From Escherichia phage sutha, in the sequence record PV245934.1: a DNA stretch of 64,000 bases, one strand, 5' to 3'. Both the position numbers and the translations under genes were made by a program. Shown in pieces: positions 4,081-63,914 of the stretch. The notes beneath the pieces were generated by a model that ran no database searches, had not been told where the DNA came from, and saw nothing but the letters and a program-made list of their open reading frames with translations. How positions within the stretch are numbered: position 1 is the stretch's first letter; the number at the start of each line of letters is the position of its first letter.

Positions 4081-4551
4081 TTAATCATGTTTCCACACCC
4101 CATCGGTATTTGACCAAAGTCGCTGATTATCTGATCCTCGCCACAGCTTTTTGGTCGGAAGATTTTTCTCATACTTCCCATCAATAATAACATCAACATA
4201 TTTAAGCATTTCTAGTTGTTTAATATCTTCAAACTTATATCCTGTCCACAACCAAATGCTTTTATTGGGATAAAGATTTTTTACTGTTTGAACAATGCAA
4301 TGAATAACATCTCGGTTATCAGGATAGAGAGGGTCTCCTCCAGTTATAGTTAATCCTTCTATATAATCATTATTCAAACATTCAATTAATTGTTCTAGTG
4401 TTTCACCAGTGAATGGAACGCCATTTCTAGCATTCCATGTTGATTTATTATAACACCCTTCACATTTATGCAAACAACCTGTAACGAAAAGAACGACCCT
4501 GCATCCAGGACCATTAACAAAGCAGCAAGGGTATATTCTGTCATAATTCAT
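4081..4551 (-). CDS. nrdG: anaerobic ribonucleotide reductase activating protein (radical SAM)
   Basis: Radical-SAM Cys cluster CCFVNGPGCRVVLFVTGCLHKCEGC; immediately downstream of nrdD; start taken at MNYDRIYP. Confidence 0.9.
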   Translation of the reverse strand: MNYDRIYPCCFVNGPGCRVVLFVTGCLHKCEGCYNKSTWNARNGVPFTGETLEQLIECLNNDYIEGLTITGGDPLYPDNRDVIHCIVQTVKNLYPNKSIWLWTGYKFEDIKQLEMLKYVDVIIDGKYEKNLPTKKLWRGSDNQRLWSNTDGVWKHD

Positions 4552-5282
4552 AATAATATCCAATTTTTCCAAGCTTCATCAGTAGAATTACAGCGTTTTA
4601 GTATAAGATGTCTAGAAACTTTTATGGCATTTGAGCACTTTTTAATTGAATCATATTTAATACCGTCAACTGAAACGGTTTTGCTAGTTGGAGAAATTTT
4701 TCCATACATTGGATTTTTTGAACCAACTTGAAGTCCTTTTAAAGCTTTTGAAAGCTTTTGTCTAGATTCCAATGACATGGGAGAATTCTTTTTACCTTCA
4801 ATAATTCGCTTGCGATGAAGTTCGCGTTCTTCTTCACTCAAAGAATTGTAATATTTTTTAACACCGTTTGATATAGATAATTTATCTTTCTCAGACCGCT
4901 CTCCAGCTAATTTACTTCTAACATCTTTTCGCTTCATAGCTATGCTTACGGCTTTATTTAAATTTGCTTGATGCTCTGGCGTACGTTTATATTTCTTTAA
5001 AGCACGTGAAATAGCTATTTTAGTTTCTTCTGTTCTCTTTTTACCTTTATTTGCTAAACTATTTTTGCGGCGATGTTCAAGTGTCTGTTCATAGGCAGTT
5101 CCACCTTTTCCACCAGGTTTAATATTATATGTATTTTCTTTTAGACAATACTCTTCGGTTACAAGTTCAGCTTCTTTATCATACATTTGTTTTTCATTAT
5201 CAAAAACATGTAAAATTTCTTTATTAAAATTTTTTCTACCATGTTTTAATAAAGCGGCACGAATCAATGTTCCTGACCCCAT
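4548..5282 (-). CDS. GIY-YIG family homing endonuclease, C-terminal portion (NUMOD-like DNA-binding repeats)
   Basis: Repeated basic helix motifs (RKNSLANKGKK.., SRQKLSKALKG..) typical of Seg-type DNA-binding domains; N-terminus begins mid catalytic domain (GSGTLIRAALLKHGRKNF). Confidence 0.7.
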   Translation of the reverse strand: MGSGTLIRAALLKHGRKNFNKEILHVFDNEKQMYDKEAELVTEEYCLKENTYNIKPGGKGGTAYEQTLEHRRKNSLANKGKKRTEETKIAISRALKKYKRTPEHQANLNKAVSIAMKRKDVRSKLAGERSEKDKLSISNGVKKYYNSLSEEERELHRKRIIEGKKNSPMSLESRQKLSKALKGLQVGSKNPMYGKISPTSKTVSVDGIKYDSIKKCSNAIKVSRHLILKRCNSTDEAWKNWILL

Positions 5283-5292
5283 ATAACCGTCA

Positions 5293-5382
5293 TTTATTTA
5301 TGTTATCGGTGCTATGCGCACCGATATATTCCTTTGAATTAATTATATTTGTTATTTTATAAATTATATAATACCTATGCAT
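5293..5382 (-). pseudogene. N-terminal GIY-YIG motif fragment in a different frame (frameshifted or split homing endonuclease gene)
   Basis: Manual translation from ATG at 5382: MHRYYIIYKITNIINSKEYIGAHSTDNINK*, carrying the GIY...YIG signature; ends at TGA in an A-rich run; the 244-aa ORF continues one frame over. Confidence 0.55.
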
Positions 5383-7192
5383 GTTTTACTCGTTTTACCA
5401 TTTCTTTCATTTTACCTAAATTCCATGGAACAACGCTAGGAGTTCCAAGATATCCGCATGTTCTTCTTATTGTATTCATCTTTTTAGGATCAGTTTCTCC
5501 ACAAATAGAACAAACAAATCCGTTTTCAGTAGGAGTCATTTCATGGGTACTTCCACACGTAAAACATTTATCTACTGGCATATTAACACCAAAATAATCT
5601 AAATGTTGTGCAGCATAATCCCATACAGCCTCAAGACCTTTTAGGTTATTTTTCATATCAGGAAGTTCAACATAAGAAATGTGACCACCTGTCGCAATGA
5701 AATGATACGGTGCTTCGCGAGAAATCTTTTCAAACGGAGTAATATTTTCTTCTACTGAAACGTGGAAACTATTAGTGTACCAGCCTTTATCGGTAACATC
5801 TTTTACACTTCCATATTTTTCGGTATCAAGTTTACAGAAGCGATAACACAGGTTTTCAGCAGGAGTAGAATACAAGCTAAAAGCAAATCCGGTTCTTTCA
5901 GTCCACTGTTTAAGACGAGCATTCATTTTAGTCAAAATTTCTTGCCCAATATCACGACCGACAAGAATATTCAATTCGTGAATACCGATGTATCCCAGGG
6001 ATACTGAACTTCTACCGTTTTTAAATAACTCAATTATATCATCATCGGGTTTAAGACGAACCCCGAATGCACCTTCTTGGTAAAGAATAGGAGCAACAGT
6101 AGCTTTAACTCCTTTTAATGAACTAATTCTACACATCAATGCTTCAAAACATAAATCCATTCGCTCATTGAACAATTCGGCAAATTTCTGTTCATTGAAT
6201 TGTGTTCCAATATAAGAATCTAACGCAATGCGAGGAAGATTCAGTGTTACAACGCCAAGATTATTACGTCCATCAAGAATTTCATTACCAGTCGAATCTT
6301 TCCATACGCTCAAGAAACTACGGCAACCCATTGGAGAAACAGGAATAGATGAACCTGTGATAGCTTTATTGTTCTTAGCCGAAATGATGTCAGGATACAT
6401 TCTTTTGCTTGCGCATTCTAAAGCAAGCTGCTTAATATCATAGTTCGGATCGTCTTTATAAAGATTAACACCTTCTTCAACAAACATAACAAGTTTAGGG
6501 AAAATAGGAGTTATCCCATCACGACCAAGGCCTTTAATACGATTTTTCAGAATTGCTTTCTGAATCATTCGTTCAGTCCAGTCAGTTCCCGTACCAAATG
6601 TAATTGTTACAAAAGGCGTTTGTCCGTTTGAACTAAAGAGAGTATTTACTTCATATTCATAAGCTTGGAATGCATCGTATACATCTTTTTCTGTTTTAGA
6701 TTGGGCATAATTCAACGCATCAGCGATTTGCCATTTTTCTGCGTCCTCAATATGTTTTGCATAGGTGCGTTTAACATAAGGAGAAAGGACTTTATCTACA
6801 TTCGCAAAAGTCGTTCCACCGTATTGATGGGAAGCAACCTGTGCAGTAATTTGTGCCATAATTGCAGTAGCAACACCGATTGATTTAGGAGTTTCAATCT
6901 GTGCATTACCGAGCTTAAATCCGTTCTCAAGCATTCCTTTTAAATCTACTAAACAGCAATTAGTAAATGGAAGAGCAGGGGAATAATCAATATCATGGAA
7001 ATGAATAATTCCGCTTTCATGCGCTTTCATAATAAAAGACGGGACCATATTTTTGGCAATGTGTTTAGACACAATACCAGCCATAAGGTCCCGTTGAGTT
7101 GGAAAAACACGAGAATCTTTATTAGCATTCTCGTTTAAAAGGTCTTTATTAGTTTTATGAATCAATCCTTCAATTTCTTTTTCAATTGTCAT
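5375..7192 (-). CDS. nrdD: anaerobic ribonucleoside-triphosphate reductase
   Basis: 605 aa; C-terminal glycyl radical motif RRTCGYLG; N-terminus MTIEKEIEGLIHK as in T4 NrdD; continuous, no intron. Confidence 0.95.
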   Translation of the reverse strand: MTIEKEIEGLIHKTNKDLLNENANKDSRVFPTQRDLMAGIVSKHIAKNMVPSFIMKAHESGIIHFHDIDYSPALPFTNCCLVDLKGMLENGFKLGNAQIETPKSIGVATAIMAQITAQVASHQYGGTTFANVDKVLSPYVKRTYAKHIEDAEKWQIADALNYAQSKTEKDVYDAFQAYEYEVNTLFSSNGQTPFVTITFGTGTDWTERMIQKAILKNRIKGLGRDGITPIFPKLVMFVEEGVNLYKDDPNYDIKQLALECASKRMYPDIISAKNNKAITGSSIPVSPMGCRSFLSVWKDSTGNEILDGRNNLGVVTLNLPRIALDSYIGTQFNEQKFAELFNERMDLCFEALMCRISSLKGVKATVAPILYQEGAFGVRLKPDDDIIELFKNGRSSVSLGYIGIHELNILVGRDIGQEILTKMNARLKQWTERTGFAFSLYSTPAENLCYRFCKLDTEKYGSVKDVTDKGWYTNSFHVSVEENITPFEKISREAPYHFIATGGHISYVELPDMKNNLKGLEAVWDYAAQHLDYFGVNMPVDKCFTCGSTHEMTPTENGFVCSICGETDPKKMNTIRRTCGYLGTPSVVPWNLGKMKEMVKRVKHA

Positions 7193-7662
7193 TTTAAACT
7201 CTTTCTAAGCTGCTTCTTAAATGAAGTTATTAATTGTGTTTTGGTGTCAGATTCATTATATTCAAATCCTCTTTGAAGCATCTCAGCCATCATTTCCTCT
7301 TTTCCTAAACGAGAAAATTCCTTTGATTTATCTCCAACAAAGTTAGGGTGAATATTATTTTGGGTGTAATCGGATTTTAAATAAGTAAGTAAATTTTCTA
7401 ACCATTCAAGATAATCAACACCTTGCCCCTTTAAGCCAGAACGATTAAATTTATGTTTCATTTGACCTTCTGCAGCATTGCAGAGATTACATAGCAACCC
7501 ACGTACCTTTCCTGCTTTTGGTCCATTTAATTCATGGTCATGGTCAAGGTGATTAGCTTGAACATCAGGATTTAGTTCTCGTTGGCAAATTAAGCATTTA
7601 CCGCTTTGTGCATCATAAAATTTCTGTTTTTCTTCTTTGTATAATTTGCCAGTCAATAACAT
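7189..7662 (-). CDS. 49: endonuclease VII (Holliday junction resolvase)
   Basis: 157 aa MLLTGKLYKEEKQKFYDAQ...CLICQRELN... matches recalled T4 gp49. Confidence 0.9.
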   Translation of the reverse strand: MLLTGKLYKEEKQKFYDAQSGKCLICQRELNPDVQANHLDHDHELNGPKAGKVRGLLCNLCNAAEGQMKHKFNRSGLKGQGVDYLEWLENLLTYLKSDYTQNNIHPNFVGDKSKEFSRLGKEEMMAEMLQRGFEYNESDTKTQLITSFKKQLRKSLK

Positions 7663-8175: not shown

Positions 8176-8280
8176 TTATGTCATTTATTGTAGGTTCATT
8201 ATATACTGTTTCTTCATCAGTGTAAACCGGTTCTTCCGGTTCTGGCTCTACTGTTTCCCATCTAGCCGCCCACCAAGGTT

Positions 8281-8601
8281 TTATAGCGTAATCCATTCTC
8301 GTATTGTCTGAGTTACTACACGTTCACGGGGCTCGACTAGTTCAACAGTCGGAACTGCATAATACCAGTCAGAATGGTAAGAACCTGAGCGAGATTCATT
8401 TACAGACACATGAACGTTATGTTTTGGACTAAAATAAACGCACTGCCGATACTGGCATTTGCCATCTTGTACCCAATCTTCTATTTCGACAGGTTTAAGA
8501 TAATCCGAAAAATCGAAATCATAATTTTCTGAAAATGCATCATGGTCTTCGATGATTTCACTCAGAACTGCATCAACATCTAATTTATTTTCAATATTCA
8601 T
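8281..8601 (-). CDS. hypothetical protein
   Basis: 106-aa ORF. Confidence 0.45.
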   Translation of the reverse strand: MNIENKLDVDAVLSEIIEDHDAFSENYDFDFSDYLKPVEIEDWVQDGKCQYRQCVYFSPKHNVHVSVNESRSGSYHSDWYYAVPTVELVEPRERVVTQTIREWITL

Positions 8602-16781: not shown

Positions 16782-17795
16782 TCATTTATAATAACTTCGG
16801 TGGTTTTCAAGATAAACCCTCTCAAGGAAGTCATCCCAGAAACCCATGTCTACTTTTTGCTGCATACCGTTCTTAGAAGCTTCAATGGATGCTGCTTCTA
16901 CTTGATCGACCACATCTTCCAAAAACTCTTGAACAGTTTTAAATGGATGCTTACCCAGCTTCACGTCGAGAATAAATGGAGCATCTTGGAGTGGATAAAC
17001 CAAGTCACCAGTTTTGTAAATTTCCAATAGTTGAAGTCCACCACGGCAGGCATGGCTCAGAGCTTTCCAGTCAATGCCTTCGTTGGCTTCGGCCTTACGA
17101 GCACGTTCACCGTATTCAGCATCTAATTTGTTCAGTGACTGCTTAAGCTCAATAAGAGAAAGCGTTGTCTGATATTTACGACCCAACACAGTGTAGAACG
17201 TTTGCGGGCCTGTTTTCTCATGATTATGGAACACCCATTCACAGAATTCGTTTTCTGGAAGACGATGCTTAATATCTTCAACTTTAGTACGACGCTGCTT
17301 AATGGAACCGTCTTCTTGGTAATCAACCCATTGCTCAGGGATTTGATTAACTACTTTCAATACATCGCGTAATGCAGCCAAACGAGAACCCTTGACACCG
17401 TATTTAGAAGCTTGCTTGCGGACATATCCTAAATAGGATTTCATGTTAGTCGTATAAAAACGAGAACGGTTGTCTTGAATAAACTTCCACACATCAGGCA
17501 AATCAGATTTAACCACTAGCTCAGGTGGAGTGTGGAGCATATCCAATGCTACAGTTTCACCATCTGCTGCTAATTTAAAGAAATATTTAAGACTGTATAG
17601 TTCATGGTCAATATCATCTTTAGTGTTTTTAGATGATGTGTTGTTAGTGTTTTTACTCATATGCTCTTTAACATTTCCGATAAGAATATCGCGAGCAGGA
17701 GGAACAAAGATTTCTTTAAAATCTACATCAGATTCTGGAGTAGAAGTTCCATAAAGATGACTACCAAAATAGCTTTTCATTACTGTTTTCATCAT
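16782..17795 (-). CDS. predicted nucleotidyltransferase (pol-beta superfamily)
   Basis: GSHLYGTSTPESDVDF matches the GS...DxD nucleotidyltransferase signature; hairpin terminator follows. Confidence 0.55.
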   Translation of the reverse strand: MMKTVMKSYFGSHLYGTSTPESDVDFKEIFVPPARDILIGNVKEHMSKNTNNTSSKNTKDDIDHELYSLKYFFKLAADGETVALDMLHTPPELVVKSDLPDVWKFIQDNRSRFYTTNMKSYLGYVRKQASKYGVKGSRLAALRDVLKVVNQIPEQWVDYQEDGSIKQRRTKVEDIKHRLPENEFCEWVFHNHEKTGPQTFYTVLGRKYQTTLSLIELKQSLNKLDAEYGERARKAEANEGIDWKALSHACRGGLQLLEIYKTGDLVYPLQDAPFILDVKLGKHPFKTVQEFLEDVVDQVEAASIEASKNGMQQKVDMGFWDDFLERVYLENHRSYYK

Positions 17796-24577: not shown

Positions 24578-24898
24578 TTATTCTTTAAATCTAATCAATT
24601 TATTCATAGACTTTGTAACTTCTGCACGAACCTCATGTAGATTTTTGAGCTGTTCAAGACGTTGCTCATAGTAAGCAATTTCATCTTCTTCGAGACAGTC
24701 CTGCGAATCTTCTTTAAGATAACGTGCATAGTCCTGGAAAGCTTTACGGACTACTTCCTGGAAGTCATCAAGACTTTGAATTTTCTTAGGAGCAACAGAT
24801 ACACGACGAGGGGCAGTATAATACTCATAACCAAACCCTGCGCTTAATTGAGCCATTAATATTTTTCCTCTGGTTGGAACACAGCACGACAAGCCCAC
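24578..24898 (-). CDS. hypothetical protein
   Basis: 106-aa ORF. Confidence 0.4.
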
Positions 24899-25122
24899 AT
24901 ACTGGCTTCTTTGAGTTTCGTTTTAGCAATAGTTAACTGATCAAGACTTTCAGCATAATTCTTCGCGAATTCACAGTCTTCACAATTATCTAGTGCTTCC
25001 CAGAATTCATCATATAAAGCATCAAAGATAAGTCCTAAACGAACTTCAGCATCTTTGATAGCATTCACTTTACCGATTTTCTCTTCAGTATGTGGATTAT
25101 AACCCTTAATATCTTCAATCAT
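24856..25122 (-). CDS. hypothetical protein
   Basis: 88-aa acidic ORF. Confidence 0.4.
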
Positions 25123-25336
25123 ATTTTACTTCCTCACCAGTACCCAAATCATATTCAACTAAACGAATAGGTTCATGAATGCCATATCCCTGAACAGAAA
25201 TTTCTGTCGTAGGATAAATTCCACTAATATCACCCATGTTCCATGCTTCATTAAATTGCTGTTCGCCTGAATTACTAAACCACTCGGCGAAAGCATTTAG
25301 CACATCTTTAGAACCTTCAATAATTATCTTTGCCAT
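25115..25336 (-). CDS. hypothetical protein
   Basis: 73-aa ORF. Confidence 0.4.
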   Translation of the reverse strand: MAKIIIEGSKDVLNAFAEWFSNSGEQQFNEAWNMGDISGIYPTTEISVQGYGIHEPIRLVEYDLGTGEEVKYD

Positions 25337-25710
25337 TACAGACTCTCAGTAAAGGTACGAGCGATAACGTCGCGCTGCTGTTCCGGAGTCAGAGAGTTAA
25401 AGCGAACTGCATAACCGGATACACGGATGGTCAGCTGCGGATATTTTTCCGGATGCTTAACTGCATCTTCCAGAGTTTCACGACGCAGAACATTAACGTT
25501 CAAGTGTTGACCACCTTCAATTTTAACTGTAGGTTGTGTTTCAATTTCAATTTCACGGGCATGCAAACCGTAGAAAATTTCTGGGTCTACAAAAGAGTCC
25601 TCTTTAAAGGTTTTAGAGACAATAATTCGTGCTTGAATACCGTCTTCAAAATAAATAGTACCTTTATGCGTGCCTTCAAGAATTTGATATGCTTTCATAT
25701 AACCTCTCAA
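25336..25710 (-). CDS. autonomous glycyl radical cofactor (GrcA/YfiD-like)
   Basis: C-terminal ...[59 protein letters not shown] with glycyl-radical RVSGY motif; this half is GC-rich with E. coli-like codons. Confidence 0.85.
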
Positions 25711-26087
25711 TTAGAAAATAAATTTATCCAAGATTGCTCTTTAATTAAAAATGGCTCAGAATCATATGCCATTAAACTTTGGGTGATTAGTCCTTTAAAA
25801 GGTCCATCAATAAATTCCATGGTAAAATATGGAATTTTATTCATTAATCTTGCATTAGGAGCAGTGCACAAAACTCTGCATCCTTTGAATACGCCTTTTT
25901 GTAATTTGTATTGCTTAGGATAAAATTCGCTCAAGACGTTGTTATTTGCCAAAATTTCAAAATGATTCACCAATTTATTTTTAATAGTTTTTGGCGAAAA
26001 ATAAAGATATTCGAAAAGTTGCGTATCTGTCATCATTGCATTCCGATTACGAAAAACTGTGGACGAGTAATACCACCAGTACAGCAT
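25707..26087 (-). CDS. hypothetical protein
   Basis: 126-aa ORF. Confidence 0.4.
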
Positions 26088-32617: not shown

Positions 32618-32656
32618 CTTATTTCCTGTTTTAATTCGTGATTTAATATACTACTA

Positions 32657-32664
32657 TATTTATA
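32657..32664 (-). promoter_or_regulatory. late promoter (TATAAATA) upstream of CTS internal-protein gene
   Basis: tatttata on plus about 40 nt upstream of start at 32617. Confidence 0.5.
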
Positions 32665-32665
32665 C

Positions 32666-32696
32666 CAAAAAGCCCCAACCTTTCGGTCGGGGCTAA
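32666..32696 (-). terminator. rho-independent terminator, copy B of 30-bp direct repeat
   Basis: Identical to copy A. Confidence 0.55.
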
Positions 32697-32745
32697 GCCT
32701 TGCGGCAACCTTGTCGGGGTTCCACCTGCTAAGGCAAGTGTTTGT

Positions 32746-32837
32746 ACGAAACGCCGGGATTCGAACCCGGTTATTAAGCAGTTGACGCTACTCAATATTT
32801 TTAAAAGGCCATATCTCGACCATATCCGAACGTTCCG
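32746..32837 (-). ncRNA. tRNA-like structured RNA (possible stable small RNA or degenerate tRNA)
   Basis: T-arm-like CCGGG-TTCGAAT-CCCGG with pairable acceptor ends; no clean anticodon arm. Confidence 0.3.
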
Positions 32838-32978
32838 TCAAAAACGCTACTCGGCTTACGGCAAAGATATTTCCTCGAATCGATAATTCGGTGCGCCGTT
32901 TCAGCTGTGATAGTAAAGAACCAGAACACAGTAAAACTGTGGGAGGAACTATACTCCAGGGAACATCAGTCCGACGAC

Positions 32979-33533
32979 TTACCGGTAGCGACCCGGTTTC
33001 TCATTTGGTATTTCAAATTGTGTAGATTTAGTATCTAATTTTTTAACTATGGAACTTATGTCATGAAAGAAAAACCATTCACTATTTATATGGTCCTGAT
33101 TATAAATGCTGTGCATATATTTTTCAAGTTCTACTGCATCCTGGGAATATCTAAATGATACTATTTTAAAACTTTTAAACGGTGAAAATGTATTTGCTGT
33201 TATAACTCTAACATCAGGTTCTATACTTCTTCCTATTTTATAATAATTAGGATTTGTAGTATCTACCATTATGTATACGAAAGCCTGTCGATAGCTTTTT
33301 TCTATATCAAATTCATCTTTAAATTTCAAAAGATTTAGGGCGGCAGTCCTACAAAATACTTTCCATTTTGACAAGCGTTTGGCTTTAGTCATAGAAAAGA
33401 ATTTTTTCTTATCTGTTATTTTAAGAAAAGCAACATTTTCAATTAGTTCTTGTGTTATTTCAAAATTACCATGGTATATTAATCCAGCTTTTATAGCCAA
33501 ATTAATTTGGTCCCAGTCTACATCACTTCTCAT
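32979..33533 (-). CDS. hypothetical protein inside the tRNA region (weak GIY-YIG/T5orf172-like motif)
   Basis: 184 aa; NYYKIGRS motif mid-protein; between tRNA-like RNA and tRNA-Arg. Confidence 0.45.
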   Translation of the reverse strand: MRSDVDWDQINLAIKAGLIYHGNFEITQELIENVAFLKITDKKKFFSMTKAKRLSKWKVFCRTAALNLLKFKDEFDIEKSYRQAFVYIMVDTTNPNYYKIGRSIEPDVRVITANTFSPFKSFKIVSFRYSQDAVELEKYMHSIYNQDHINSEWFFFHDISSIVKKLDTKSTQFEIPNEKPGRYR

Positions 33534-33554: not shown

Positions 33555-33631
33555 TGGCCAGGGTGAAAGGATTCTAACCTTTAACCTGCGGTTTAGAGGA
33601 CCGCTACTCTATACAATTGAGTTACACCCCG
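33555..33631 (-). tRNA. tRNA-Arg (anticodon UCU)
   Basis: Manual cloverleaf: acceptor CGGGGTG/CACCCTG, T-arm AAAGG-TTAGAAT-CCTTT, anticodon loop CCUCUAA, encoded CCA. Confidence 0.75.
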
Positions 33632-33757
33632 TAATTAGTTCACAGCAATACCTACTCCAACAATCAAGATGTCTTCACACGAAATTAAGAGAAGAGTGAT
33701 CAGTTCAACCCCTATAACCGCGTCAAGTAGATATTAATGTGACAATTGTCACAAATT

Positions 33758-33832
33758 TGGCGGACGTGATAGGATTCGAACCTATAACCAATCGCTTAAC
33801 AGGCGATCGCTCTGCCATTGAGCTACACATCC
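33758..33832 (-). tRNA. tRNA-Asn (anticodon GUU)
   Basis: Clean cloverleaf: D-arm GCTC-AATGGCA-GAGC, anticodon arm ATCGC-CUGUUAA-GCGAT, T-arm ATAGG-TTCGAAT-CCTAT, encoded CCA. Confidence 0.75.
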
Positions 33833-33836
33833 AAAT

Positions 33837-33923
33837 TGGTGGGGAGTGGTGGAGTCGAACCACCCGAGTCGCAATGACAATGGATTTACAGTCCACACCG
33901 CTACCTCTACGGGATAACTCCCC
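33837..33923 (-). tRNA. tRNA-Tyr (anticodon GUA), long variable arm
   Basis: 87 nt; anticodon loop CUGUAAA; T-arm GTGG-TTCGACT-CCAC; acceptor GGGGAGT/ACTCCCC; encoded CCA. Confidence 0.7.
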
Positions 33924-33932
33924 TAATTAATT

Positions 33933-34009
33933 TGGTGACCCAGACCAGATTTGAACTGATAACCTTTCCCTTATGAGGGGACTGCTGCTAACCATTGAGC
34001 TACAGGGCC
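33933..34009 (-). tRNA. tRNA with CAU anticodon (Met or Ile2)
   Basis: Anticodon loop CUCAUAA; T-arm ATCAG-TTCAAAT-CTGGT; imperfect acceptor and D stems; encoded CCA. Confidence 0.6.
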
Positions 34010-34010
34010 T

Positions 34011-34086
34011 TGGTGCTGATTGACGGAATCGAACCGCCGACGTCCTCATTACAAGTGAGGTGCTCTACCTACTGAGCTAAATCAGC
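34011..34086 (-). tRNA. tRNA-Thr (anticodon UGU)
   Basis: Acceptor GCTGATT/AATCAGC, D-arm GCTC-AGTAGGTA-GAGC, anticodon loop CUUGUAA, T-arm GGCGG-TTCGATT-CCGTC, CCA. Confidence 0.8.
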
Positions 34087-34091
34087 AAAAC

Positions 34092-34181
34092 TGGCGGAGG
34101 CGATAGGATTTGAACCTATGAGTCGCCGGAGCGACTGCCGGTTTTCAAGACCGGTGCATTAAACCACTCTGCCACGCCTCC
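34092..34181 (-). tRNA. tRNA-Ser (anticodon UGA), long variable arm
   Basis: 90 nt; anticodon arm CCGGT-CUUGAAA-ACCGG; T-arm ATAGG-TTCAAAT-CCTAT; CCA. Confidence 0.8.
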
Positions 34182-34183
34182 AG

Positions 34184-34257
34184 TCTCCGCGGCAGGATTT
34201 GAACCTGCGACATTCTGCTCCCAAAGCAGACGCTCTACCAAACTGAGCTACACGGAG
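34184..34257 (-). tRNA. tRNA-Pro (anticodon UGG)
   Basis: Anticodon arm TCTGC-UUUGGGA-GCAGA; T-arm GCAGG-TTCAAAT-CCTGC; CCA not encoded. Confidence 0.8.
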
Positions 34258-34267
34258 TAAATTAAAT

Positions 34268-34341
<74 letters not shown>

Positions 34342-34346
34342 AAATT

Positions 34347-34433
34347 TGGTGCGAGAAGTGGGACTCGAACCCACAAGGAAATCATTCCGCAGCATTTTAA
34401 GTGCTGTGCCTTTACCAATTTGACCATTCTCGC
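34347..34433 (-). tRNA. tRNA-Leu (anticodon UAA), long variable arm
   Basis: 87 nt; anticodon arm CAGCA-CUUAAAA-TGCTG; T-arm GTGGG-TTCGAGT-CCCAC; CCA. Confidence 0.8.
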
Positions 34434-34434
34434 G

Positions 34435-34507
34435 CTGGGAATAAAGGACTCGAACCTTTGCATCTAGCAGTCAAAGTGCTATGCCTTACCAACTTGGCTA
34501 ATTCCCA
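34435..34507 (-). tRNA. tRNA-Gln (anticodon UUG)
   Basis: Acceptor TGGGAAT/ATTCCCA, anticodon arm TAGCA-CUUUGAC-TGCTA, T-arm AAAGG-TTCGAGT-CCTTT; CCA not encoded. Confidence 0.8.
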
Positions 34508-53141: not shown

Positions 53142-54721
53142 GTAATAATACATATCAACACGTTTCTAATGAATCTCGCTATGTAAAATTTGATCCAACT
53201 GGCACAAATTTTCCGGCAGAGATTACTGATGTTCAGGCTGCTATAGCAGCCATTTCTCCTGCTGGTGTAAATGGAGTTCCTGATGCATCATCAACAACAA
53301 AAGGAATTTTATTTCTTGCCACTGAACAGGAAGTTATCGACGGAACTGATAATACCAAAGCAGTTACACCAGCAACGTTGGCAACAAGATTATCTTATCC
53401 AAACGCAACTGAAACTGTTTACGGATTAACAAGATATTCAACCAATGATGAAGCGATTGCCGGAGTTAATAATGAATCTTCTATAACTCCTGCTAAATTT
53501 ACTGTTGCCCTTAATAATGCCTTTGAAACTCGTGTTTCAACTGAATCAAAGAATGGAGTTATTAAAATTTCATCTCTACCGCAAGCATTAGCTGGCGCAG
53601 ATGATACTACTGCAATGACTCCATTAAAAACGCAGCAGTTAGCTATTAAACTAATTGCGCAAATCGCTCCTTCTGAATCCACAGCTACCGAATCGGCCCA
53701 AGGTGTTGTTCAATTAGCGACAGTAGCTCAAGTTCGTCAAGGAACTTTAAGAGAAGGCTATGCAATTTCTCCTTATACGTTCATGAATTCTACTGCTACT
53801 GAAGAATATAAAGGCGTAATTAAATTAGGAACACAATCAGAAGTTAACTCGAATAATGCTTCTGTTGCGGTTACTGGTGCAACTCTTAATGGTCGTGGTT
53901 CTACAACGTCAATGAGAGGCGTAGTTAAATTAACTACAACTGCCGGCTCACAGAGTGGAGGCGATGCTTCATCAGCATTAGCTTGGAATGCTGATGTTAT
54001 CCACCAAAGAGGTGGTCAAACGATTAATGGAACACTTCGCATTAATAATACGCTTACAATAGCTTCAGGTGGAGCAAATATTACCGGAACAGTTAACATG
54101 ACCGGTGGTTATATTCAAGGTAAGCGTGTTGTAACACAGAATGAAATAGATAGAACTATTCCTGTTGGAGCTATTATGATGTGGGCGGCAGATAGTCTTC
54201 CTAGTGATGCTTGGCGCTTCTGTCATGGCGGAACTGTTTCAGCATCAGATTGTCCGTTATATGCTTCTAGAATTGGAACAAGATACGGCGGAAGCTCATC
54301 AAATCCTGGATTACCTGATATGCGTGGCCTTTTTGTTCGCGGCTCTGGTCGCGGCTCTCACTTAACAAATCCAAATGTTAATGGTAATGACCAATTTGGT
54401 AAGCCTAGATTAGGTGTAGGTTGTACTGGTGGATATGTTGGCGAAGTGCAAAAACAGCAGATGTCTTATCATAAACACGCTGGCGGATTTGGTGAATGGG
54501 ATGATTCTGGAGCATTCGGTAATACCCGTAGATCAAATTTTGTTGGTACACGTAAAGGACTTGACTGGGATAACCGTTCATACTTCACCAATGATGGATA
54601 TGAAATTGACCCAGCATCACAACGAAATTCTAGATACACACTAAATCGTCCTGAATTAATTGGAAATGAAACACGTCCATGGAACATTTCTTTAAACTAC
54701 ATAATTAAGGTAAAAGAATGA
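53138..54721 (+). CDS. 12: short tail fiber gp12
   Basis: 527 aa. Confidence 0.9.
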
Positions 54722-61934: not shown

Positions 61935-63914
61935 ATGACTTTATTATCTCCGGGCATTGAGCTCAAAGAAACTACGGTTCAAAGCACCGTGGTTAATAAC
62001 TCTACTGGTACAGCAGCTCTGGCCGGTAAATTCCAGTGGGGTCCTGCTTTTCAAATTAAACAGGTTACAAATGAAGTAGATTTAGTTAATACTTTTGGTC
62101 AACCTACAGCTGAAACTGCTGACTATTTTATGTCTGCAATGAATTTCTTACAATACGGAAATGATTTACGAGTTGTGCGTGCTGTCGATAGAGATACCGC
62201 TAAAAACTCATCTCCGATTGCCGGTAATATTGAATACACTATTTCTACCCCAGGTAGTAACTACGCGGTTGGAGATAAAATCACGGTTAAGTATGTTTCA
62301 GAAGACATTGAAACAGAATGTAAAGTTACCGAAGTAGATGCTGATGGAAAAATTAAGAAAATTAATATTCCTACCGCAAAAATTATCGCTAAAGCGAAAG
62401 AAGTAGGCGAATATCCAGCATTAGGTTCTAACTGGACCGCGGAAATTTCTTCGTCTTCCTCTGGTTTAGCTGCAGTAATAACTCTTGGAAAAATTATTAC
62501 TGATTCTGGTATTTTATTAGCTGAAATTGAAAATGCCGAAGCTGCTATGACAGCTGTTGACTTTCAAGCAAATCTCGAAAAATATGGAATTCCAGGAGTA
62601 GTAGCTCTTTATCCAGGCGAGTTGGGCGATAAAATCGAAATTGAAATCGTATCTAAAGCTGACTACGCAAAAGGTGCTTCTGCATTACTTCCAATTTATC
62701 CAGGCGGCGGCACACGCGCATCTACTGCCAAAGCAGTGTTTGGATACGGACCACAAACTGATTCACAATACGCTATTATAGTTCGTCGCAATGATGCTAT
62801 TGTTCAAAGCGTTGTTCTTTCAACGAAGCGTGGTGAAAAAGATATTTACGATAGTAACATCTATATTGATGACTTTTTCGCAAAAGGTGGTTCAGAATAT
62901 ATTTTTGCAACTGCACAAAACTGGCCAGAAGGCTTCTCTGGAATTTTAACTCTGTCTGGTGGATTATCGTCAAATGCTGAAGTAACAGCAGGAGATTTGA
63001 TGGAAGCTTGGGACTTCTTTGCTGACCGTGAATCTGTTGATGTTCAGTTGTTTATTGCGGGTTCTTGCGCCGGCGAATCTTTAGAAACAGCATCTACTGT
63101 CCAAAAACACGTCGTCTCAATTGGGGATGCTCGCCAGGATTGCTTAGTACTGTGCTCTCCACCGCGTGAAACTGTAGTTGGAATTCCTGTAACTCGTGCT
63201 GTTGATAACTTAGTCAACTGGAGAACTGCAGCAGGTTCATACACTGATAATAACTTTAATATCAGTTCAACCTACGCAGCAATTGATGGTAACTACAAGT
63301 ATCAGTATGACAAATATAATGATGTGAATCGTTGGGTTCCATTAGCAGCTGATATTGCTGGTTTGTGTGCAAGAACTGATAACGTTTCTCAGACTTGGAT
63401 GTCTCCAGCTGGTTATAATCGTGGCCAGATTCTTAACGTTATTAAACTTGCTATTGAAACTCGCCAGGCGCAGCGCGACCGTTTATACCAAGAAGCTATC
63501 AACCCAGTAACTGGTACAGGTGGTGATGGTTACGTATTGTATGGTGATAAAACAGCTACTTCTGTTCCTTCTCCATTTGATCGTATTAACGTTCGTCGTC
63601 TGTTTAATATGTTAAAAACGAATATCGGACGTAGTTCAAAATATCGTTTGTTCGAATTAAACAACGCGTTTACTCGTTCATCGTTCCGCACAGAAACTTC
63701 CCAGTACTTGCAGGGAATTAAAGCTCTCGGTGGAATTTATGAATATCGTGTAGTTTGCGATACAACAAATAACACTCCATCAGTAATTGATAGAAATGAG
63801 TTTGTTGCAACATTCTACATTCAACCGGCTAGAAGCATTAACTACATTACCTTAAACTTCGTAGCAACTGCTACTGGTGCAGATTTCGATGAGTTAACTG
63901 GTCTTGCAGGTTAA
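61935..63914 (+). CDS. 18: tail sheath protein gp18
   Basis: 659 aa MTLLSPGIELKETTVQSTVVNN..., near-identical to recalled T4 gp18. Confidence 0.97.
   Translation: MTLLSPGIELKETTVQSTVVNNSTGTAALAGKFQWGPAFQIKQVTNEVDLVNTFGQPTAETADYFMSAMNFLQYGNDLRVVRAVDRDTAKNSSPIAGNIEYTISTPGSNYAVGDKITVKYVSEDIETECKVTEVDADGKIKKINIPTAKIIAKAKEVGEYPALGSNWTAEISSSSSGLAAVITLGKIITDSGILLAEIENAEAAMTAVDFQANLEKYGIPGVVALYPGELGDKIEIEIVSKADYAKGASALLPIYPGGGTRASTAKAVFGYGPQTDSQYAIIVRRNDAIVQSVVLSTKRGEKDIYDSNIYIDDFFAKGGSEYIFATAQNWPEGFSGILTLSGGLSSNAEVTAGDLMEAWDFFADRESVDVQLFIAGSCAGESLETASTVQKHVVSIGDARQDCLVLCSPPRETVVGIPVTRAVDNLVNWRTAAGSYTDNNFNISSTYAAIDGNYKYQYDKYNDVNRWVPLAADIAGLCARTDNVSQTWMSPAGYNRGQILNVIKLAIETRQAQRDRLYQEAINPVTGTGGDGYVLYGDKTATSVPSPFDRINVRRLFNMLKTNIGRSSKYRLFELNNAFTRSSFRTETSQYLQGIKALGGIYEYRVVCDTTNNTPSVIDRNEFVATFYIQPARSINYITLNFVATATGADFDELTGLAG

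Follow-up and report, generated by a model that had tools for sequence, protein, structure and literature searches.

The vs.6 spare-part gene of T4-like phages as a probable chimera of a phage 5′ half and the glycyl-radical-domain tract of host grcA

The stretch of DNA considered here (hereafter, the window) is a 64,000-nt segment of Escherichia phage sutha (PV245934.1), a T4-like phage of the genus Tequatrovirus. The window carries a homolog of the T4 gene vs.6 (Y06I), which is annotated as vs.6 or autonomous glycyl radical cofactor in T4, RB69 and Escherichia phage 236Ecol005PP, and the 1.5 kb around it are 98.4% identical at the DNA level to the last of these phages and 97–98% identical to many other T4-like phages. 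The gene is tightly packed in an early gene array (Table 1); the order vs.7-vs.6-vs.5-acb2-regB is common to T4-like phages, and the position of vs.6 within the regB-ipIII early region is kept. The original prediction placed a GrcA-like gene at 25336–25710, and an open reading frame of that extent does exist on the minus strand, its TTG start codon overlapping the end of the gene upstream at the stop codon; the true start, however, is the ATG at 25698, as in T4, RB69 and related records, which yields a product of 120 aa. A scan for promoters and terminators around vs.6 returned 11 sites, with 12.4 expected, that is, no local signal above chance. Two genes downstream of vs.6, the vs.4 homolog (24856–25122, minus strand) is called anti-CBASS protein 2 (Acb2) in related phages, which places the spare-part gene within an early-gene block that mixes counter-defense and host-takeover functions. 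In the record of Escherichia phage ZCEC14 (OP168898.1), vs.6 is labeled "HNH homing endonuclease" and vs.4 "deoxynucleoside kinase", which are evident misannotations, and other records name vs.6 "pyruvate formate-lyase" or "2-ketobutyrate formate-lyase".

Table 1. Features of the vs.6 locus in the window (all coordinates refer to the 64,000-nt segment)
Feature	Position	Strand	Basis or remark
vs.5 homolog, downstream neighbor	25115..25336	-	start overlaps vs.6 stop (TAATG); no Pfam family
vs.6 / Y06I ortholog, 120-aa GrcA-like autonomous glycyl radical cofactor	25336..25698	-	ATG 25698, TAA 25338-25336; ORF, Pfam, PDB and PHROG matches
Right-edge mosaic (gene nt 354-363: GAG AGT CTG TAA)	25336..25345	-	phage-type alleles at 25345 and 25342
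E. coli grcA-derived tract (gene nt 179-353, residues E61-T117)	25346..25520	-	173/175 identical; mismatches at 25503 and 25492
Gly95 codon in RVSGY, glycyl-radical site (= YfiD G102 = PFL G734)	25414..25416	-	translation; alignment to 6owr and to PFL 1cm5/1h16
Phage-type, AT-rich 5′ part (gene nt 1-178, residues 1-60)	25521..25698	-	80/177 nt to grcA; GC 0.343; conserved among T-even phages
Shine-Dalgarno-like GAGAGG	25703..25708	-	4 nt upstream of ATG, overlaps vs.7 stop (25707-25709); read from sequence, putative function
vs.7 homolog, upstream neighbor	25707..26087	-	member of the conserved vs.7-vs.6-vs.5-vs.4 array; no Pfam family

The protein encoded by the window gene is an ortholog of T4 vs.6/Y06I, with 118 of 120 residues identical, which bears out its description as GrcA-like. 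It is a small (~14 kDa class) stand-alone protein with a C-terminal Gly_radical domain (PF01228, 2.2e-18, residues 60–101), as is characteristic of GrcA/YfiD. PHROG 1209, a family that still bears the label "unknown function", matches it over the full length (5.4e-63, residues 1–120 on profile positions 1–121) and matches the part encoded by the 5′ half of the gene taken alone (1.1e-15). The best match among solved structures is YfiD/GrcA (6owr_A, 4.6e-42), followed by the C-terminus of pyruvate formate-lyase (PFL), and the RVSG95YAVRF context of the radical glycine is identical to that of GrcA G102 and PFL G734, the latter being the radical and cleavage site of PFL (PMC8683613). In YfiD, residues 61–127 form a structured domain that duplicates PFL 693–759 including the glycyl-radical loop, and residues 1–60 are disordered, yet required for binding of cleaved PFL (cPFL) and efficient installation of the radical (PMC8683613). 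The two parts of the phage protein relate to YfiD differently. The C-terminal 60 residues (E61–L120, including RVSG95Y) are identical to E. coli GrcA E68–L127, so that the predicted identity through the RVSGY motif holds over a slightly longer stretch than the ~58 aa first proposed, whereas BLASTP and phmmer detect only weak similarity to YfiD in the N-terminal part, starting from residue 22 (residues 22–60 vs YfiD 28–67; ARxIVxK..F.ED), with residues 1–21 unaligned. The NCBIfam model of GrcA, TIGR04365, accordingly covers residues 20–120 only and gives 154.6 bits, below its equivalog cutoff of 170 (E. coli GrcA scores 233.9), because the N-terminal half is of the phage type.

The partition seen in the protein is much sharper in the DNA. 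The segment 25336–25520 of the window is identical to grcA at 181 of 185 nt (97.8%) in all 5,426 of 5,426 complete E. coli genomes; it breaks off exactly at 25520, the coordinate at which the host-like sequence had been predicted to end. The four mismatches are found at 25503 and 25492, near the left edge, and at 25345 and 25342, near the right edge, and direct alignment shows an exact run of 146 nt between them (25346–25491). In the 5′ part of the gene, identity to E. coli grcA falls to ~45% of the aligned nucleotides (Fisher p = 6e-32 relative to the tract). The maximum chi-square statistic (125.6) puts the breakpoint after gene nt 178, at 25521|25520 of the window, and was reached in 0 of 2000 permutations. 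The 3′ half is, as had been suggested, host-derived, and the N-terminal half is phage-like, being conserved across T-even phages, recognized by PHROG 1209 and only ~45% identical in DNA to any bacterial grcA. Because the last ~10 nt before the stop codon carry phage-type alleles, the copied tract probably does not quite extend to that codon, past which direct alignment shows no similarity to the 3′ flank of E. coli grcA. The copied tract (GrcA 68–127) is essentially the structured glycyl-radical domain, and it is the only chromosomal E. coli-like DNA across the 64 kb of the window.

Base composition changes at the breakpoint as well. The GC content steps from 0.343 in the 5′ half to 0.476 in the tract (0.50 in its core), the mean of the whole window being 0.352 ± 0.045, which puts the tract within the top 1% of all 185-nt intervals of the window; GC3 is 0.22 in the 5′ half and 0.41 in the tract, which also holds all five CTG codons (5/5) and both CGC codons (2/2) of vs.6, in agreement with the GC step and the E. 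coli-like codon usage noticed at the outset. The changes that the tract has undergone since the transfer are biased, 10 GC-to-AT vs 3 AT-to-GC, as would be expected of a slow drift toward the AT-richness of the phage. Several other 185-nt intervals with GC of at least 0.46–0.48 occur in this 35% GC sequence (17023–17225, 32651–33011, 54159–54373, 62976–63248 and 8205–8417); a megablast search of these against E. coli genomes yielded no match, so they are not recent host copies. The GC-rich block at 33.7–34.4 kb is accounted for by a cluster of 10 tRNA genes (Arg, Asn, Tyr, Met, Thr, Ser, Pro, Gly, Leu, Gln; 33555–34507, minus strand), a part of which (~33772–33926) is 83–90% identical to tRNA-Tyr/Thr regions in ~212 E. 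coli plasmid records of 92–110 kb, which are probably phage-plasmids.

The same junction with another donor is found in phages of Klebsiella. Among Klebsiella grcA sequences obtained via protein clusters named K. pneumoniae, K. variicola, K. oxytoca, K. michiganensis and K. aerogenes, where the species labels are those of the protein names and not of the assembly titles, the tract of the Jiaodavirus vB_KpnM_17-11 matches the K. pneumoniae type at 174 of 186 nt, with an exact run of 101 nt, and for JD18 the match is 171–172 of 186 against the K. pneumoniae and K. variicola types, with an exact run of 80 nt; against E. coli grcA, both phages reach only ~158/186. The Klebsiella-type tract starts at the same junction as the E. 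coli-type tract, and its last ~19 nt are of the phage type. In the phage database, identity to the K. pneumoniae tract is at least 95% in 45 records and 90–95% in a further 95; the best 30 matches are nearly all from Klebsiella or Raoultella phages, and one "Salmonella" phage carries a Klebsiella-type tract. There have thus been at least two independent host-matched replacements, from E. coli in Tequatrovirus/Mosigvirus and from the K. pneumoniae complex in Jiaodavirus. Not every related tract is matched to a donor: K. oxytoca was ruled out as the donor for PKO111, a phage with a K. oxytoca host (159/186), and none of ~90 bacterial grcA genes is a convincing donor for PKO111 or for the Slopekvirus KP5, phi1_146010 and Nando (best identity 84–88%), nor does the bacterial grcA panel contain a close donor for the Slopekvirus and Pseudotevenvirus tracts (84–88%). 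An unusual feature of JD18 is the Ser (TCG) of LTSEQQ, a position occupied by Pro in other phages and in most bacteria. K. variicola-type grcA variants share this TCG codon, which may be a trace left by a particular donor allele. Upstream of vs.6, vB_KpnM_17-11 has a gene unrelated to that in JD18 and PKO111, and similarity returns ~70 nt before the vs.6 start, which indicates a local gene replacement adjoining the mosaic gene.

Homologs of vs.6 are present in 1,504 phage records, and none of these (0/1,504) carries a full-length host-like grcA; 505 phage records are at least 95% identical to E. coli grcA, and only across grcA nt 200–384. In ~648 records, the 5′ half is at least 80% identical to that of the window gene (80–95% in 189 of these), and the tract is kept at 95% or more in 637 records. 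The aligned T-even phages show exact runs of between 65 and 175 nt against E. coli, the Tequatrovirus fFiEco06 and the Mosigvirus RPN187 being identical to the E. coli tract at 175/175; given more than 600 independent genomes, exact runs of 146–175 nt are unlikely to be assembly artefacts. Synonymous divergence between Tequatrovirus and Mosigvirus is 0.54 in vs.7, 0.70 in vs.5 and 0.32 in the 5′ part of vs.6, and only 0.12 in the tract, close to the ~0.08 seen within a genus, which dates the tract to after the two genera separated. Either the tract entered each coliphage genus separately from E. coli, or it entered once and then spread from phage to phage. Tequatroviruses isolated on Salmonella, Yersinia, Serratia and Citrobacter retain the E. 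coli-type tract; the tract follows the phage lineage more than the isolation host, which makes replacement an episodic and not a routine process. In RB55, a T4-species phage (KM607002.1) in whose record vs.6 is left unannotated, a 13-nt deletion (alignment columns 556–568) removes CGGTTATGCAGTT, including the codon of the radical glycine, and shifts the frame; either laboratory stocks can do without vs.6, or the deletion is an error of sequencing.

A host-like 3′ half could in principle arise without any transfer, if it were merely that part of a gene acquired long ago on which constraint is strongest, held by purifying selection and codon adaptation to the host, and the protein sequence of the C-terminal domain is indeed highly conserved in all homologs. 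Protein constraint, however, does not account for the DNA. Among 81 bacterial grcA genes, that of E. coli is the closest to the tract (0.973), followed by another Escherichia species (0.962), with all non-Escherichia genes at or below 0.898. Twelve bacterial species encode a C-terminal 61 aa identical to that of E. coli, and their DNA in the tract is only 0.84–0.925 identical to the E. coli sequence, save for another Escherichia species at 0.989; bacteria sharing the protein thus differ by 8–16% in DNA, whereas phage tracts match E. coli at 171–175 of 175 positions over the same stretch, an identity that goes beyond protein constraint and extends to synonymous sites across 146–175 nt. Homologs that lack the host tract (in T5-like phages, Karamvirus, Krischvirus, Winklervirus and Aeromonas phages) are only 0.72–0.80 identical to any bacterial grcA in the same domain, although some of these phages infect E. 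coli; the best E. coli match of the homolog from a T5-like coliphage, which serves as a negative control, is the 3′ end of pflB, at 77%. The phage tracts resemble the particular species that serves as host, with Klebsiella taking the place of E. coli as the match in Klebsiella phages. Between PKO111 and JD18, both Jiaodavirus, the 5′ half is nearly identical and the tract contains many synonymous differences (by eye, ~3% vs ~9%), the opposite of what constraint predicts. An explanation by selection alone is rejected on the synonymous-site identity and the T5-like control, and we give it next to no credence. The reverse direction, in which a T-even phage would have been the source of the 3′ half of E. 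coli grcA, is just as hard to credit, even though intragenic exchanges in both directions have been reported for cyanophage psbA (PMC1484495). In bacteria, the 5′ and 3′ halves of grcA diverge in parallel along the species tree (Citrobacter vs E. coli: 0.925 in the 3′ half, 0.884 in the 5′ half), the GC and GC3 of the tract are host-like and make it an outlier in the phage and not in E. coli, and the 5′ half of grcA has no phage counterpart. The congruent divergence of the grcA halves among bacteria leads to the rejection of a phage-to-host transfer, and, together with a composition that is normal in E. coli and aberrant in the phage, it sets the direction. At the level of sequence, then, the 3′ tract is a host-to-phage transfer with E. 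coli as the donor.

How many times E. coli sequence was captured is a more evenly balanced matter. A single E. coli-to-phage replacement, followed by spread between Tequatrovirus and Mosigvirus through recombination in co-infected cells, would dispense with repeated captures from E. coli, and we put its chance at somewhat less than even. T-even phages recombine freely; the left junction (nt 178|179) is identical in all 11 aligned T-even loci, which also have phage-type alleles near the stop codon in common, and the synonymous divergence of the 5′ half of vs.6 between the genera, well below that of the flanking genes, hints at exchange of the whole gene between phages. Yet in Jiaodavirus an identical left junction goes with another donor; its place is therefore set by where homology starts, and its sharing is no evidence for one event. 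At the right edge, E. coli-like and phage-like alleles are intermixed at nt 354, 357, 358 and 360 among the 11 phages, a mosaic that needs several events or recurrent mutation. A single event also leaves the Klebsiella-type tract unexplained, and at least two host captures remain in any case.

The interpretation that we prefer is that the vs.6/Y06I spare-part gene is a chimera of a phage 5′ half and a radical-domain tract of host grcA, brought together by recombination or gene conversion with two donors, and we hold it to be highly probable. An old phage homolog, ameliorated to AT-richness, would supply residues 1–60, the counterpart of the disordered, cPFL-binding N-terminal region of GrcA, and the DNA for residues 61 to ~117 would be overwritten by host grcA when phage and host DNA meet in the infected cell, by homologous recombination or gene conversion. 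The limits of the tract would be those of the only stretch similar enough for phage-host pairing, from the GAAGGTGGTCA (EGGQ) motif to the end of the gene, and the candidate enzymes are phage UvsX/UvsY or host RecA, working on fragments of host DNA; once copied, the tract would drift slowly back to phage composition. A single junction shared by two different donors supports such homology-limited gene conversion. That the tract coincides with a protein domain needs no selective explanation, because it is also the sole stretch fit for pairing, although exact identity to the host might carry some selective benefit. What counts against the proposed mechanism is that T4 degrades cytosine-containing host DNA, and host-to-T4 transfer is generally considered rare.

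As for the function of the product, both T4 Y06I and YfiD, once activated by PFL-AE, are reported to restore the activity of O2-cleaved PFL (Wagner et al. 2001, cited in PMC8683613), and no spare-part proteins other than these two have been validated. By analogy with T4, the window gene is probably a PFL spare part of the early gene array, in keeping with the role originally proposed for it. The host activase PflA would install the radical on Gly95, judging by orthology to the T4 protein; the radicalized protein would dock into oxygen-cleaved host PFL, replacing the lost C-terminal radical domain, and the repaired enzyme would sustain fermentative production of acetyl-CoA and formate in infected cells under microaerobic conditions. 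A different main role, as a spare part or regulator for the phage NrdD or as a decoy titrating host PflA or GrcA, seems improbable. It could draw on the anaerobic pair that had been pointed out in the same window and is present there, nrdD (5375–7192) and nrdG (4081–4572), on the role in nucleotide metabolism speculated upon by Nolan et al. 2006 (PMC1524935), and on the phage N-terminal region, which is unlike that of YfiD, the region that governs cPFL binding and activation. The radical domain, however, is identical to that of GrcA and closest to PFL 697–759 (9e-26), not to NrdD, and rescue of cleaved PFL by Y06I in vitro is on record (PMC8683613). Between nrdG and nrdD, the window also encodes a 244-aa ORF (4548–5282, minus strand) with NUMOD3 and I-TevI DNA-binding motifs, resembling the mobD homing endonuclease, and gp49 endonuclease VII is encoded at 7189–7662.

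Compared with its closest relatives, the window gene shares with T4 vs.6/Y06I the position between vs.7 and vs.5 and the chimeric structure with an E. coli-type 3′ tract, and differs from it in two amino acids (T54P, R73H) and a few synonymous sites; in T4, the tract is slightly longer on either side, being E. coli-like at nt 196, 207 and 354, and contains the R73H change. With E. coli GrcA (YfiD, 6OWR) it shares the radical domain in both protein and DNA, as described above, whereas its N-terminal 60 residues are only weakly similar and encoded by AT-rich DNA, the protein is 7 aa shorter, and the gene lacks the host promoter and flanks. Stand-alone Gly_radical proteins of 120–138 aa, with a conserved domain that includes RVSGYAVRF, are likewise encoded by T5-like phages (Tequintavirus), Karamvirus, Krischvirus and T4-like phages of Aeromonas; unlike vs.6, these genes have no host-identical tract, and several of their products end in TFTQ..M, as PflB does, and not in TFTESL. 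In the T5-like phage DaisyDussoix and in Aeromonas phage 31.2, the spare-part gene lies among tRNA genes and its product ends in TFTQAM or TFTQSL, PflB-like and not GrcA-like; the T5-like and Aeromonas genes may derive from the PFL C-terminus independently of grcA. The nearest precedent for the mosaic itself is provided by cyanophage psbA and psbD, in which patchy G+C content and segments swapped with the host gene have been ascribed to intragenic recombination (PMC1484495). As in those genes, the case concerns a metabolic gene of a T4-like phage with host-exchanged segments, and vs.6 displays three features of a psbA-type mosaic: a supported breakpoint, a coinciding composition step, and an identifiable donor with excess synonymous identity. 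In comparison, the vs.6 mosaic is much cleaner, with one sharp junction and an exact donor species, its tract coincides with a protein domain, there is a second donor in a sister lineage of phages, the bacteria infected are enterobacteria, and the cytosine of the phage is modified.

For T4 vs.6/Y06I, both gene and biochemical role are already established, and the supposed role of the protein is not altered by these findings. In Nolan et al. 2006 (PMC1524935), vs.6 figures merely as a conserved ORF with a Gly_radical match. The searchable literature contains no description of the host-identical 3′ half of vs.6, an earlier mention (e.g., in Wagner 2001 or Miller 2003) being possible, and a host-matched 3′ tract with two donors is apparently an under-reported evolutionary detail. 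It is a very clean case of a strictly lytic, cytosine-modified phage carrying a piece of a host chromosomal gene, with the donor known to the species and the junction to the nucleotide. Such a tract can be used as a marker of the recent host of a phage lineage, as a calibration for the drift of acquired DNA toward phage composition, and as a handle on recombination between host and virulent phage. It also raises a functional question, in that the phage keeps its own N-terminal region, which in GrcA controls activation as well as binding to damaged PFL, and takes the exact radical domain of the host. On balance, we lean toward regarding vs.6 of lytic T4-like phages as a standing target of host-matched gene conversion, the radical-domain half being overwritten upon each new enterobacterial host and the N-terminal half kept. 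If this is true, vs.6 would be a natural recorder of recent host history and a tractable system for measuring host-to-virulent-phage recombination that occurs despite host DNA degradation and cytosine modification.
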